DNA from: a virus
Reading direction: 5' to 3' (one strand)
Length of the DNA: 40,131 nt
UHGV virus genome: UHGV-1363679
Each line of letters starts with the position of its first letter. Within the stretch, counting starts at the first letter, position 1. Position numbers and translations under genes: made by a program. Positions 16,543 through 26,798 of this stretch are shown here, one piece after another. The notes beneath the pieces were generated by a model. That model was not told the DNA's origin. It saw nothing but the letters and a program-made list of their open reading frames with translations, and did no database searches.

Positions 16543-17187
16543 ATGGAATGGTGGCAATTATGGATTCCTTTTGGTGGAACTATAGCGGGAATTTTTGCAA
16601 ATGTATATATTAATTATAGACAGACAAAGAAAAATGAAGAACTTCAAAAAGAAATAACTCAAAAACAAATTGACGCTAATTTAAAAGCAAAGGCAAGAAT
16701 AGAATGGATTACCGAGGTACGAAACTTAGTTAGTAAATATTTATCTTATCTGTTCGATATTAAAATATTGGTTAGCAGAATGCAAGATATTGAAGAGGAA
16801 TTAAGTGGTTTAGAGAAGCAAACGATTCAAGAATCAACTTATATTGATAGACAAAGGGAGTTAAAAATAAAACAATTAAAAAAAGAAGATGAATTAATGA
16901 TTTGTATACAAGCATCCATTTTAACTGCAGAAAAAATATTACTTCATTTCAGCAAAAAAGACGAGCATAAGGCTATTGAGAAAGAATTATCAGATTCTGT
17001 AAATATTATAAAAGATATAGAGGCAAGAGAAGCGAGACCAGGTTTCTACGATATGTATTTGCCAAAAACTGATAAAACTTACGCTAGTAAAATGAGAGGT
17101 TTGATTGATAATTCAATTACTCGTATACGTAATATTTTTCGTGAATATCTAAAAACTGAATGGGATAGAGCAAAAAAGGGACAATAA
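16543..17187 (+). CDS. Membrane-anchored coiled-coil protein (214 aa) of unknown function, a moron inserted between ArpU and terS. Candidate defence / superinfection-exclusion / abortive-infection factor.
   Basis: One N-terminal TM helix (WWQLWIPFGGTIAGIFANVYINY), then ~190 aa charged helical sequence with heptad-like spacing. It has its own candidate promoter and its own intrinsic terminator. Appears more AT-rich than neighbouring genes (estimated by eye). Confidence 0.6.
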   Translation: MEWWQLWIPFGGTIAGIFANVYINYRQTKKNEELQKEITQKQIDANLKAKARIEWITEVRNLVSKYLSYLFDIKILVSRMQDIEEELSGLEKQTIQESTYIDRQRELKIKQLKKEDELMICIQASILTAEKILLHFSKKDEHKAIEKELSDSVNIIKDIEAREARPGFYDMYLPKTDKTYASKMRGLIDNSITRIRNIFREYLKTEWDRAKKGQ

Positions 17188-22898: not shown

Positions 22899-23831
22899 AT
22901 GAAGAAAAAACAATTAATGAAAATGGATATTCAAATGTTTGCTCAAACATGGAATCCAGACAACGTCACTGTATTAGAGAAAAAAGATGGAACAATTCCA
23001 GATAAGTACAACACGTTAATTTTAAAAGATGTGATGGAAAATTCTAAGTTAATGCAGTTGGCTAAATATGAAGAAATGGACGGCAAAGAAAAGAAATTCG
23101 AATACTTTGCAGAAGGTCCTGGGGCGTACTGGGTTGGTGAAGGCGAAAAGATTAAAACGTCTAAACCTAAATGGTTAAACGTAACGATGACTGCGAAAAA
23201 AATTGGTGTTATTATCCCAGTTTCTCGGGAATATTTAACTTATAAGATGTCTGATTTCTTTACTCAAATGCAACCAAAAATCGCAGAAGCATTTTATAAG
23301 AAAATTGATGCGGCTACTATCCTTGATAAAGAAAATCCATTCTCTCAATCTATTGAAAAATCTGTCATTGCAGCTAGTAATGTAATTGAGGGCGACTTGA
23401 CATATGACAATATTTTAGCATTAGAGGATTTGCTTGGAGAAGGTGAATACGATCCGAATGCTTTCATTTCTAATCGTAAGAATCGTACAGTGTTACGTGA
23501 AGCAAGTAAAAAAATTGGTGACACAACTCAATTTATTTATGATCGTGTCAGCAATACTATTGATGGACTACCTGTAGCAGATCTAAAATCTATGGATAAG
23601 GGAAACCTTTATACTGGTGATTTTGATTACTTGCGCTATGGTATCCCATTTAACATTAATTTCAAAATTTCAGAAGAAGCTCAATTATCTACTTTAACGA
23701 ATGAAGACGGTACGCCTGTCAACTTGTACGAACAAGAATTGGTTGCTTTACGAGCTACAATGGATATTGGTTTCATGGTCATCAAAGATGAAGCATTTGC
23801 TAAGATTCAACCAAAAGCTGCGGGGGAGTAA
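22899..23831 (+). CDS. Major capsid protein (0-frame product). A longer variant is predicted by a -1 frameshift at 23822..23828.
   Basis: Size, position after scaffold, and a Q-M-F-A N-terminal motif paralleling the scaffold N-terminus. Confidence 0.75.
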   Translation: MKKKQLMKMDIQMFAQTWNPDNVTVLEKKDGTIPDKYNTLILKDVMENSKLMQLAKYEEMDGKEKKFEYFAEGPGAYWVGEGEKIKTSKPKWLNVTMTAKKIGVIIPVSREYLTYKMSDFFTQMQPKIAEAFYKKIDAATILDKENPFSQSIEKSVIAASNVIEGDLTYDNILALEDLLGEGEYDPNAFISNRKNRTVLREASKKIGDTTQFIYDRVSNTIDGLPVADLKSMDKGNLYTGDFDYLRYGIPFNINFKISEEAQLSTLTNEDGTPVNLYEQELVALRATMDIGFMVIKDEAFAKIQPKAAGE

Positions 23832-23893
23832 CTAGCCCTGTTGTCGGAAAAGTAACACCGACAACAAATGGGGCGACAATCGAACTAACTTAG
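23822..23893 (+). other. Putative -1 programmed frameshift cassette at the MCP 3' end. It comprises the G-run slip site GGGGGAG (23822..23828), a 0-frame TAA (23829..23831), a 9-bp-stem hairpin (23839..23866) and a -1 frame encoding GVTSPVVGKVTPTTNGATIELT* (to 23893).
   Basis: Manual translation of the -1 frame. Hairpin TGTTGTCGG/CCGACAACA. The extension is homologous to the one at the major tail gene. Confidence 0.5.
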
Positions 23894-24924: not shown

Positions 24925-25310
24925 TTAAAACAAGAGATCAATCAATCTTCGATGAAGTGTATAAGAAGTGTCAATCACTGGGTTATGAAACCTACGATTA
25001 TAAACCTATGAATGATGTAGGTTATCCATTTGTCGAATTAGAAGATACTCAGACACTGCACCAAGCCAACAAAACTGATATTAAAGGTTCGGTTACATTG
25101 AATCTATCTGTATGGGGATTGGCAAAAAAACGTAAACAAATATCGGATATGGCTTCAGCAATTTTTGCTGAGGCTCTATCTATTTCTGAAACGGAAGGTT
25201 ATTATTGGTCGCTAAATATCCAATCAAGCGGTATTCGGTTAGTAGATGACATTTCGACTAACACAACATTGAAGCGGGCAATGATATCTTTAGAATTCAA
25301 AATACTATAG
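24921..25310 (+). CDS. Tail terminator-like protein.
   Basis: Position immediately upstream of the major tail protein. Confidence 0.45.
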
Positions 25311-25325
25311 AGAGAAGGAATATAA

Positions 25326-25856
25326 ATGGCTAATGAAGCAAAAGTAGCGACTAAAGGTATTGATATTATTTTACTGCTCCGTGTGTTAAAAAAATCAAAA
25401 GAGGAAGCAGCATGGAAATTAGCTTTCCAGACAGAGCATGAAAATACAAAAACAAAAGATAGCGACTCCGTAGCAACTAAAGATGGTCCGATTCGTATCC
25501 CAGGATCATTGGAAATTGATTTTTCGGCAACATCTATTTTATCAGTCGCTGATCCGTATGTTGACCAGCTAGAAGAAGCTTTAGACAATGACGATATTAT
25601 TGAAATCTGGGAAATCAACAAAGCAGAAAAAGGTACAGGAGATAATGCTGACAAGTACAAGGCAACTTATTATCAAGGATATTTAACATCATTTGGTAAA
25701 TCACCTAATGCTGAAGACACTGTAGAAGTTTCATTAGAATTTGGTATCAATGGCAAAGGTGCAAAAGGATTTGCAACATTAACTGCTGATCAAGAAGAAG
25801 TAGTTCAATACATCTTCAAAGATACGACTATTGAAACAGATGATTCGGGAAAGTAG
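25326..25856 (+). CDS. Major tail protein (TP901-1-type; 0-frame product). A longer variant is predicted by a -1 frameshift at 25847..25853.
   Basis: 176 aa. ...KGIDIILLLRV...W..AFQTEH...TKDG..RIPGSLE... fits TP901-1-family MTPs. Position before the chaperone / TMP. Confidence 0.7.
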   Translation: MANEAKVATKGIDIILLLRVLKKSKEEAAWKLAFQTEHENTKTKDSDSVATKDGPIRIPGSLEIDFSATSILSVADPYVDQLEEALDNDDIIEIWEINKAEKGTGDNADKYKATYYQGYLTSFGKSPNAEDTVEVSLEFGINGKGAKGFATLTADQEEVVQYIFKDTTIETDDSGK

Positions 25857-25918
25857 ATAGCCCTGTTGTTGGAGGTGTAACTCCTACAGTCGATGGGGCA
25901 TCTATTGAATTAAGCTAA
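25847..25918 (+). other. Putative -1 programmed frameshift cassette at the major tail gene 3' end. It comprises the canonical heptamer G_GGA_AAG (25847..25853), a 0-frame TAG (25854..25856), an interrupted ~8-bp hairpin (25863..25889) and a -1 frame encoding VDSPVVGGVTPTVDGASIELS* (to 25918).
   Basis: X_XXY_YYZ heptamer in the correct register of the MTP frame. Manual -1 translation. Hairpin 9-12 nt downstream. Confidence 0.6.
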
Positions 25919-25933
25919 GAAAGGAAAATAAAT

Positions 25934-26392
25934 ATGGTGGATACTTTTAAAATTTATAAAGGCCAAACCGAAGTTGTTTCCGGCACATCACCTTTAACTA
26001 TAACAGGAATGGAACCTAACACCTCTGTGCCAGTTGGTGAGTACCAAGTAACTCGTGTTGTTAATGGGAAAGAATCAGAGCGAGTAGATATTCCAGCTTT
26101 TAAAACATTGTCTATTGCTGTAACTGGCTTAGAGTTTTCTCCTAAAACATCAACAGCAGATGCGGGTACTGCAGGTAGCCGACAAATCACAGCAACTGTT
26201 TTACCTGAAAATGCAACCAACAAGAAGGTAAACTATGATATTTCACCTGTAACAGAAGGTCTTGCTGTCTCTGAAACAGGAAATATTACTTGGACAGAAG
26301 CGGTACCGACTGGTGTTTATACCACAACAGGAACAACAGAGGATGGTAAAAAAACAGCTCAACACACCTTAACATTGAATAATCAAGCTTAA
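25934..26392 (+). CDS. Bacterial Ig-like (Big_2) domain protein, a candidate decoration / adhesion protein.
   Basis: ITATVLPENATNKKVNYDIS...GKKTAQHTLTL matches the Big_2 consensus (atvlP.nAtnk.vtW.S ... tatv.v). RBS GAAAGGAAAATAAAT-ATG. The ORF is in the same frame as the MTP -1 extension, separated only by TAA plus 15 nt. Confidence 0.65.
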   Translation: MVDTFKIYKGQTEVVSGTSPLTITGMEPNTSVPVGEYQVTRVVNGKESERVDIPAFKTLSIAVTGLEFSPKTSTADAGTAGSRQITATVLPENATNKKVNYDISPVTEGLAVSETGNITWTEAVPTGVYTTTGTTEDGKKTAQHTLTLNNQA

Positions 26393-26406
26393 AATATAAA
26401 TTTAGA

Positions 26407-26433
26407 GGGCAGCTTATCGGCTGCCCTTTTCTT
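26407..26433 (+). terminator. Rho-independent terminator (GGGCAGC-ttatcg-GCTGCCC followed by TTTTCTT) after the Big_2 gene.
   Basis: Perfect 7-bp GC-rich stem plus T-run. Confidence 0.65.
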
Positions 26434-26447
26434 ATGGAGGAAAAGGC

Positions 26448-26798
26448 ATGCAAATCGAAATTAAAGGAAAAAAATATAACTGTATTTTTGGAGTCAAGTT
26501 TATTCGTGAATTGGATAAGCAGCATGGGGTAGTTCGCAATGATGTGAATCTTGGAATGGGGTTAACAACATTATTACCGCAGCTAGTAAGTGGAAATATC
26601 GTTGTTTTATCTGATGTACTTTACACAGCTACCATTACGGAAAAAAGTAGACCTTCTAAGGATGAAGTAGATGAGTTTGTTGAAACTGTTGATGATATTG
26701 AGACATTATTTGATGAAACGTTGAAAAACTTAGAAGAAAGCAATGCGGGAAAGTTAACGGTCAGAAATTTCAAGAAAGCTCTGATGGAGAACAAGTAA
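26448..26798 (+). CDS. Tail assembly chaperone (gpG-like; 0-frame product).
   Basis: Position between the MTP region and TMP. Contains the slippery heptamer. Confidence 0.65.
   Translation: MQIEIKGKKYNCIFGVKFIRELDKQHGVVRNDVNLGMGLTTLLPQLVSGNIVVLSDVLYTATITEKSRPSKDEVDEFVETVDDIETLFDETLKNLEESNAGKLTVRNFKKALMENK
26765..26771 (+). other. Canonical -1 slippery heptamer A_AAT_TTC for the G/GT tail-chaperone frameshift. The -1 frame stays open from 26771 through ORF 26891..27148, giving a ~230-aa GT fusion ending at 27148.
   Basis: Manual translation. The -1 frame upstream of 26891 has no stop back to the heptamer. The heptamer is in the correct register of the 26448 frame. Confidence 0.7.

Follow-up and report, generated by a model that had tools for sequence, protein, structure and literature searches.

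The DNA analysed here (the window) is the whole 40,131-nucleotide stretch of virus genome UHGV-1363679, which comes from a phiEf11-like Enterococcus faecalis siphophage, and the subject of this study is a candidate programmed -1 frameshift site at the 3' end of its major tail (tube) protein (MTP) gene, together with the short peptide that the shift would add. The MTP gene (25326..25856; all features named below lie on the plus strand) encodes a 0-frame product of 176 aa which matches PF06199 (Phage_tail_2, E = 1.7e-16), and it shares 65-67% nucleotide identity with the MTP genes of TP901-1, NF5 and B1578. Over positions 25300-26450 the window is 95.9% identical to EFC-1, 95.4% to vB_EfaS_IME197 and 93.8% to phiEf11. 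[quoted passage not shown]

The MTP reading frame ends in TCG GGA AAG TAG, and its last two sense codons form the heptamer G_GGA_AAG (25847..25853), a canonical X_XXY_YYZ site in 0-frame register with the stop TAG (25854..25856) directly 3' of it, as an earlier note made from the sequence alone had pointed out. This heptamer recurs at 31 of the related loci described below and has been reported to shift very readily in E. coli (PMC5009743). In the -1 frame the end of the gene reads GGG AAA GTA GAT AGC ... AGC TAA (stop at 25916..25918) and yields GK-VDSPVVGGVTPTVDGASIELS before the TAA, which is exactly the 21-residue C-terminal tag that the note had derived. Translation, relatives and hhalign together assign this tag (25847..25918) to strands A-B of an FN3 domain. 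The signal stands at the extreme 3' end of a gene for a major virion protein, beside its stop codon, and the same holds for the capsid gene of the window.

Within the window alone, heptamer and adjacent stop are not significant. The DNA is AT-rich, an X_XXY_YYZ heptamer stands in frame at about 1% of its codon positions, and such a heptamer is found at the end of eight stop-to-stop open reading frames (ORFs) that have 100 codons or more, so that the view that heptamer, spacing, stop and structure together are unlikely by chance does not hold on this ground; the site stands above chance because of the comparison with other loci. A heptamer at the end of another ORF (16543..17187) was considered and set aside as looking like chance. 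This ORF of 214 aa carries A_AAA_AAG 6 nt before its stop, its -1 frame remains open for 25 codons and a terminator-like hairpin follows.

A search of viral contigs with the 152-aa protein gave 80 loci, 79 of which include the upstream region, and in all 79 a homologous tag with the motif V..P.V..(V/I)TPT..GA.I.L lies immediately upstream of the relative of the 152-aa protein. In 75 of these loci a slip site precedes the tag, which then lies in the -1 frame; in the other four, phiEf11 among them, the tag is in frame. The slip sites of the -1 loci are G_GGA_AAG (31 loci), G_GGG_GAG (21), C_CCA_AAA-GYR-stop (21) and G_GGA_AAC (2), and in each -1 cassette either no codon or a single one separates the slip site from the stop. 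The genes upstream of the tags are mutually unrelated, comprising tail-tube proteins of PF06199 and PF04630, capsid proteins of PF25209 and PF20036 and the window capsid protein of PF05065; the loci with G_GGA_AAG already span two tail-tube families. No tag was found in MTP relatives without the 152-aa gene, which end in PGK, TGA or PEG directly before the stop. Each related locus provides the downstream gene with its own RBS and start, the frame relation between this gene and the tag varies, and the tag stop and the next start are 1-22 nt apart in the 79 loci from viral contigs and farther apart in the phages phi12 and cd4. In the window, the tag and the 152-aa ORF share the same frame and are separated by TAA and 15 nt. 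A read-through or bypass joining the two was considered and rejected, because gap and frame vary between loci and each gene has its own RBS and ATG.

The MTP of phiEf11 is annotated with 197 aa and contains the same 21 tag codons in frame, its junction (CCA GAA AAA GTA GAT) differing by one base from the frameshift type (CC(G) GGA AAG TAG AT). One metagenomic contig (L012/L106) also has the tag in frame, through another inserted base (GAT CAC GGG AAA GTA). The remaining phiEf11-like loci always keep G_GGA_AAG TAG behind a preceding codon that is TCG, CCG or CTG, and several of their tag codons differ without stops or indels. Both the fact that the tag is reached in two in-frame versions via two different indels, and the invariance of the heptamer next to a varying codon, support a frameshift. 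In 28 ungapped cassettes the entropy at tag-frame codon positions 1, 2 and 3 amounts to 0.67, 0.79 and 1.43, and this concentration of variability at the third position indicates that the tag ORF is coding. Periodicity, in-frame versions and a motif shared across families all point to selected protein sequence in the -1 frame.

In two further phages the tag lies in the +1 frame, namely in Staphylococcus phage phi12 (L167, 1380-1500) after TTA CCC AGC TAA of a tail gene, and in Carnobacterium phage cd4 (L169, 1370-1500) after AAA CCC TAA of a capsid gene. The cd4 site resembles the CCC-stop +1 site of the Listeria type, and the cd4 tag ends in LSW, an FN3 hallmark. In TP901-1 (L006, 2980-3100) a gap of 114 nt separates the MTP stop from the next gene and holds a short -1 ORF (GDKAENITGSAGVQL and then a stop) after AGG GGA TAA; according to the phiEf11 paper, it was proposed long ago that the MTP and MHP of TP901-1 are larger than predicted through fusion with overlapping frames (PMC5221750).

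Six nucleotides after the heptamer, folding and the comparison of 29 cassettes place a two-tier stem-loop (25860..25899), the presumed stimulator of the frameshift. In its consensus register, 25860-25864 pair with 25895-25899 in an outer helix (GCCCU/UGGGGC) and 25865-25872 with 25883-25890 in an inner one. The hairpin that the earlier note had placed 9 nt downstream (CTGT..GGAG/CTCC..ACAG) does exist, as a single register of the larger structure's inner helix. The minimum free energy of 25854-25933 is -22.6 kcal/mol (z = -3.1), a value reached by one of 200 dinucleotide shuffles, and the 62-nt core folds with z = -3.8; a stable RNA structure is therefore found within the 5-9 nt spacing of canonical -1 cassettes.

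From the heptamer onwards the cassettes align without gaps. The structure tested was specified by hand, as a 5-bp outer and an 8-bp inner helix, and was compared with slid and shuffled controls. Across the 29 distinct cassettes 74.8% of the pairing cells are filled, vs 32-51% when the 3' partners are slid, none of 500 shuffles matches the observed pairing or covariation score, and five inner-helix pairs show compensatory changes on both sides. Heptamer and hairpin are both kept in the relatives, the stem-loop standing at a constant spacing of 6 nt and showing compensatory changes in its stem. The tags in the -1 frame fold stably (z = -3.8 for the window MTP, -4.2 for the window capsid and -4.1 for the phiEf11 capsid gene), whereas the in-frame tags of phage K form no stable structure (z = +0.9 and +0.4) though they encode a homologous peptide, and the structure therefore goes with recoding and does not simply result from the encoded peptide. 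The in-frame MTP tag of phiEf11, whose sequence is very close to the frameshift type, still folds well (z = -3.3). Related loci, in-frame versions, coding periodicity and the covarying stem all support the programmed -1 frameshift that the earlier note had proposed for the end of the MTP gene, and on this comparative evidence we consider such a frameshift very probable.

A sister -1 cassette, absent from the earlier note, is found in the major capsid gene (22899..23831, PF05065). This gene ends in GCG GGG GAG TAA (stop at 23829-23831), and behind the slip site G_GGG_GAG the -1 frame gives GG-VTSPVVGKVTPTTNGATIELT up to a TAG (23822..23893), a tag in which 15 of 21 residues are identical to that of the MTP. 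A stem-loop with a 13-bp two-tier stem follows (23835..23874, -19.5 kcal/mol, z = -4.2). A six-frame scan of the window returned exactly these two tags and one N-module gene, and no decoration gene behind the capsid tag. In phiEf11, the homologous capsid site reads A_AAA_AAA TAG and is followed by a homologous tag. Virions of this phage show two capsid bands of 38 and 41 kDa on SDS-PAGE (Stevens et al., 2016, PMC5221750), and a 21-residue -1 extension of the capsid protein ORF10, with a stem-loop, was proposed as speculation in the same study (PMC5221750). The sites with G_GGG_GAG (L139, L141-L143, L150-L166 and 23822-23828 of the window) share a feature in their pairing: after the shift the P-site GGG re-pairs perfectly, and the A-site GAG would pair anew with GGA through a central G-U.

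The earlier note had likewise not linked the tag, as FN3 strands A-B, to the following gene. Homologues of the 152-aa protein (n = 119) measure 150-165 or 240-258 aa and all begin with M..FKIYKG; a fused MTP-FN3-Big_2 protein occurs in none of the 119. The AF2 model of the 152-aa protein has a mean pLDDT of 94.7, and its N-terminal 59 residues form strands that match FN3 strands C, C', F and G, with the E segment (LTITG) left without a sheet partner. Foldseek matched the protein to Big_2-CBM56 (7quz, E = 1e-6, rmsd 1.9 A) and also to phi29 gp8, T5 pb6 and lambda gpV. Residues 60-152 match Big_2 (PF02368) in fold and profile, the score in the window protein being 15.7 bits, below the cut-off of 22.8, and that of the homologue P0089 95.8 bits.

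When 20 concatenations of tag and N-module were compared with FN3 by hhalign, the alignment spanned the junction (E = 7.5e-5), with the tag placed on strands A-B, where it aligns to strand B, and with FKIY matching strand C. Profile matches to FN3 structures in the PDB are weak (E = 0.06-1). The tag and downstream protein of cd4 together reach 37.4 bits against Pfam fn3 over model positions 2-83 (cut-off 25), and the downstream protein without the tag 23.7 bits over positions 52-83 only. A profile search with the concatenation of tag and N-module gave 195 proteins, and among the best 120 of these 195 there was no fused protein, the matches covering the N-module part only and at most 75% of the query. 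In an exhaustive search for the N-module, about two thirds of the 95 cluster representatives carry it from residue 1-11 onwards, and the remaining third are giant multi-FN3 proteins or rare contiguous versions; in close homologues the module always starts the protein. The best match of the N-module profile to a solved structure is PDB 5e7t chain B, residues 229-283 (E = 0.003), a 'Minor structural protein 5' of 286 aa, where the match falls at the C-terminus of this phage structural protein.

In the rare contiguous homologues P0271, P0198 and P0244 a tag-like segment stands directly before the module. P0271 is laid out as ...SPTLTELTPTKDGFTVKLT-GSNEDS-TFRIYDKSG...FKTLPISV-Big_2 and P0198 as PPEVESVVPTDTTATITM...TYHLYE.... 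AF2 models P0198 with well-predicted modules in which strands A and B come from the tag-like segment (pLDDT 86-96), and for this model Foldseek lists tandem FN3 crystal structures on top (E = 7e-9). It is in this contiguous homologue that an FN3 fold of seven strands is seen, with A and B supplied by the tag-like segment. The split point is constant and falls in the B-C loop. The contiguous homologues and the profile matches indicate that tag and N-module are, as judged from profiles and models, a single FN3 domain that a stop codon, an RBS and a start codon divide within the B-C loop.

The cargo carried by the N-module consists of one or two Big_2 domains, of another domain in P0097, or of none in proteins of 60-82 aa, and its occurrence alone or with varied cargo fits the role of an adaptor. 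P0097 (180 aa) combines the N-module with a non-Big_2 C-terminal part that matches PF20622, and homologues of 60-117 aa (P0142, P0159, P0135 and others) have the N-module alone or with non-Big_2 C-terminal parts. In phage K (L168, KF766114, 1337-2746) ORF95 ends in an in-frame tag, ORF96 consists of an N-module, a Big_2 domain and a second C-terminal tag (PADVTVEPGENSADITV before the stop), and the ORF after it (75 aa) is an N-module alone, altogether a chain of split FN3 domains without recoding. P0258 also has a C-terminal tag. The locus of the phage K chain lies far from the tail genes, and in one related record these genes are annotated as capsid components.

We propose, as the probable overall explanation, that a -1 slip adds FN3 strands A-B to the tail-tube protein and that these dock the 152-aa decoration protein. 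Most ribosomes would terminate the tail-tube protein at the TAG (25854), and a fraction would pause on G_GGA_AAG (25847-25853), held by the stem-loop (25860-25899) and the adjacent stop, slip back one base and add VDSPVVGGVTPTVDGASIELS. The resulting 21-residue tail would provide beta-strands A and B of an FN3 domain and be no domain by itself, and the gene at 25934-26392, with its own RBS and start, would begin at strand C and continue into Big_2. On a subset of tube subunits the tag would most likely complete the half-domain of the 152-aa protein by strand complementation. In this way Ig-like domains would be attached to the tail non-covalently, and the frameshift efficiency would govern how densely. 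A second -1 shift (23822-23893) would let the capsid gene produce such a tag too, and with tags on both capsid and tail a single decoration protein could dock on head and tail. Non-covalent docking of the Big_2 protein on frameshifted tail and head subunits is the most economical function that we can suggest, with chances that we put at even or slightly better, and it draws support from the co-occurrence of tag and N-module in 79 of 79 loci, the constant split point and the contiguous homologues. The occurrence and the rate of slippage, and the binding between tag and N-module, are what we infer here.

A number of observations weigh against this proposal. RNAalifold alone recovers only three consensus pairs in the 29 cassettes, and G_GGG_GAG is not a canonical tandem-slippage heptamer. 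In the phiEf11 study, capsid extension peptides were not found, and MTP peptides were reported for the in-frame version only, with a 197-aa MTP in virions (PMC5221750). On the side of the domain, Pfam fn3 (PF00041) matches neither the window's own concatenation of tag and N-module nor four other family concatenations, and the hhalign probability for FN3 is only 62%. The phiEf11-like loci, moreover, are at least 94% identical, and conservation inside the group could be by descent. This close relationship, the in-frame tail of phiEf11 with its one-base difference at the junction, and the fact that heptamers at ORF ends are not rare in the window would suit a history without any programmed frameshift, in which a 1-nt deletion relative to a phiEf11-like ancestor with an in-frame tail left the 21 codons as a recent untranslated remnant. 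We regard such a history as very unlikely, because most loci have the supposedly 'broken' form, with a perfect G_GGA_AAG in every case and no stops or indels among the differences in the tag and the neighbouring codon, because the same layout recurs in unrelated MTP and capsid genes with other canonical heptamers, and because the stem-loop covaries and the capsid gene of the window shows the same arrangement.

That AF2 models the N-module with high confidence without the tag suggests that the module may be stable alone, and this would be in line with a frameshift and a tag that are real and a tag that does not dock the 152-aa protein. The tag might then serve as a spacer, an assembly regulator or a weak adhesin, the 152-aa protein might bind by other contacts or be no virion protein at all, and the link to FN3 would be a historical trace; the MTP of Listeria phage PSA likewise gains a short, unrelated extension of 24 residues by a +1 frameshift without any partner gene. 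A relic half-domain should decay, however, and the tag motif is kept across divergent loci, recoding types and in-frame versions. The tag is also always beside the N-module gene or in the same genome, tag-ending proteins precede module-starting genes even as a chain in phage K, and the split always falls in the B-C loop, all of which makes a tag without docking unlikely in our judgement. We give very little credit to the idea that hairpin and short ORF serve gene expression, through translational coupling or control by mRNA structure, or that they reflect transcriptional slippage. The tag stop does lie 1-22 nt before the next start in most loci, and the G5 and A7 runs at the capsid sites of the window and of phiEf11 could in principle allow the polymerase to slip, but it is the peptide itself that is conserved, as the third-position variability shows, the in-frame tags of phage K lack a stable structure and no decoration gene comes after the window's capsid tag. 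The homopolymers in GGGAAAG, furthermore, are too short for efficient transcriptional slippage. The conservation of peptide, slip site and pairing across families argues against each of these alternatives to a frameshift that adds a docking tag.

Capsid and tail genes with recoding form a class that is already known from SPP1, A2, A118/A500, PSA and T3, and the window site joins this class. It differs from the known members in that the added piece consists of two strands that match a separately translated half-domain, and is not an Ig-like domain. In SPP1 the MTP shift runs in the +1 direction and the extension is a complete, covalent FN3 domain, whereas in the window a -1 shift adds strands A-B only and the rest starts a separate gene; both frameshifts stand at the end of the MTP gene and would add FN3-type material to a minority of subunits. 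For gp17.1/gp17.1* of SPP1 this minority carries its FN3-type C-terminal addition on the outside of the tube, at a ratio of about 3:1 (PMC8718954). In Lactobacillus phage A2, reported to need two -1 frameshifts, both the capsid and the tail gene are recoded by -1 shifts (PMC5009743), as they would be in the window, and 21 loci of the present family have a slip context identical to the C_CCA_AAA GCG TAA/TAG of A2. The A2 extensions, however, are contiguous Big_2-like domains of about 85 residues, with no split and no separate decoration gene. The 21-residue extension of the window does not give one polypeptide a whole Ig-like or FN3 domain, and in this it departs from the type of SPP1, A2 and A118.

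For phiEf11, the capsid protein ORF10 with its 21-residue extension and stem-loop is the direct homologue of the capsid cassette in the window and differs in its slip site, A_AAA_AAA. Stevens et al. did not recognise the FN3 nature of the tag or link the extensions to ORF16, and found no MTP frameshift (PMC5221750). Listeria phages A118/A500 (Tsh-L) and PSA resemble the window in making a longer MTP by recoding beside the stop, but their shift is +1 at CCC_UGA and no partner gene follows. The extensions of A118 and PSA were considered as tag homologues and rejected, that of A118 being a whole Big_2 domain and that of PSA an unrelated acidic tail of 24 residues. Strand-lacking Ig-type folds that are completed by a foreign peptide occur in the donor-strand complementation of chaperone-usher pili and in SpyTag/SpyCatcher. 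Both offer a possible working analogy for tag and N-module, although they represent another fold family in other organisms; in the pili one strand is supplied, not two, and SpyTag forms an isopeptide bond, to which nothing here points.

Downstream of the 152-aa gene, an intrinsic-terminator-like hairpin with a T run (26407..26433) precedes the tail assembly chaperone gene (26448..26798, Pfam PF12363, TAC). In MTP relatives without tag and 152-aa gene, the terminator hairpin follows directly 3' of the MTP stop and the chaperone gene comes next; the cassette therefore sits between MTP stop and terminator. Head-tail connector genes lie between the capsid gene and the region of the MTP gene, and a tape measure gene is also nearby. 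The chaperone gene holds two heptamers, both in frame and 5' of the G/GT overlap. G_GGA_AAG (26747..26753), inside SN(A/T)GKL, is kept in EFC-1, IME197, phiEf11, B1578, Brochothrix NF5 and TP901-1, whereas A_AAT_TTC (26765..26771) occurs in the phiEf11 group only. The G/GT shift, which is conserved among long-tailed phages, most likely uses G_GGA_AAG, to judge from this comparison, and the assignment of AAATTTC as its site in the earlier note was mistaken. The correction strengthens the case, because the heptamer is the same as at the MTP site. The lambda-type G/GT shift in this phage group shares its heptamer with the MTP site but yields an assembly chaperone absent from virions and not a tag on a structural subunit. 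G_GGA_AAG is also among the G-T slip sites of archaeal viruses (PMC5009743).

Recoding at the ends of capsid and tail genes for the display of Ig-like domains is known; in the window the recoded piece is just a fragment of a domain whose other part opens a separate protein. In the literature that we searched, outside of which most subscription journals fall, there was no description of a split FN3 or of strand-complementation decoration in phages. We give about even odds to a more general reading, in which a natural split FN3 would serve phages of Firmicutes (sipho- and myophages of Enterococcus and Staphylococcus, Carnobacterium phages and others) as a modular connector. A tag of about 20 residues with strands A-B would be placed at the C-terminus of a capsid, tail-tube or other virion protein, often sub-stoichiometrically via a -1 or +1 frameshift, and strands C-G would form the N-terminal acceptor of decoration proteins that are translated separately and bring Big_2 or other cargo.

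For annotation, the finding means that the records of EFC-1, IME197 and phiEf11 (capsid) lack the tagged isoforms of MTP and capsid protein. Two adjacent 'major tail protein' genes are a common annotation pattern in Enterococcus phages, an Ig-like gene stands behind the tail-tube gene in Staphylococcus siphophages of the genus Triavirus, and in Kayvirus myophages a comparable pair of genes lies elsewhere in the genome. Should the two halves assemble, this would explain the pattern of gene pairs in all three groups, and frameshift efficiency could set the density of a non-covalent decoration on head and tail. The same assembly would represent a natural pair of peptide tag and acceptor for cargo display on therapeutic Enterococcus or Staphylococcus phages. 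If the split FN3 does act as a connector, a single decoration protein could sit on head and tail alike, and proteins of this kind could be joined into chains, as phage K suggests.

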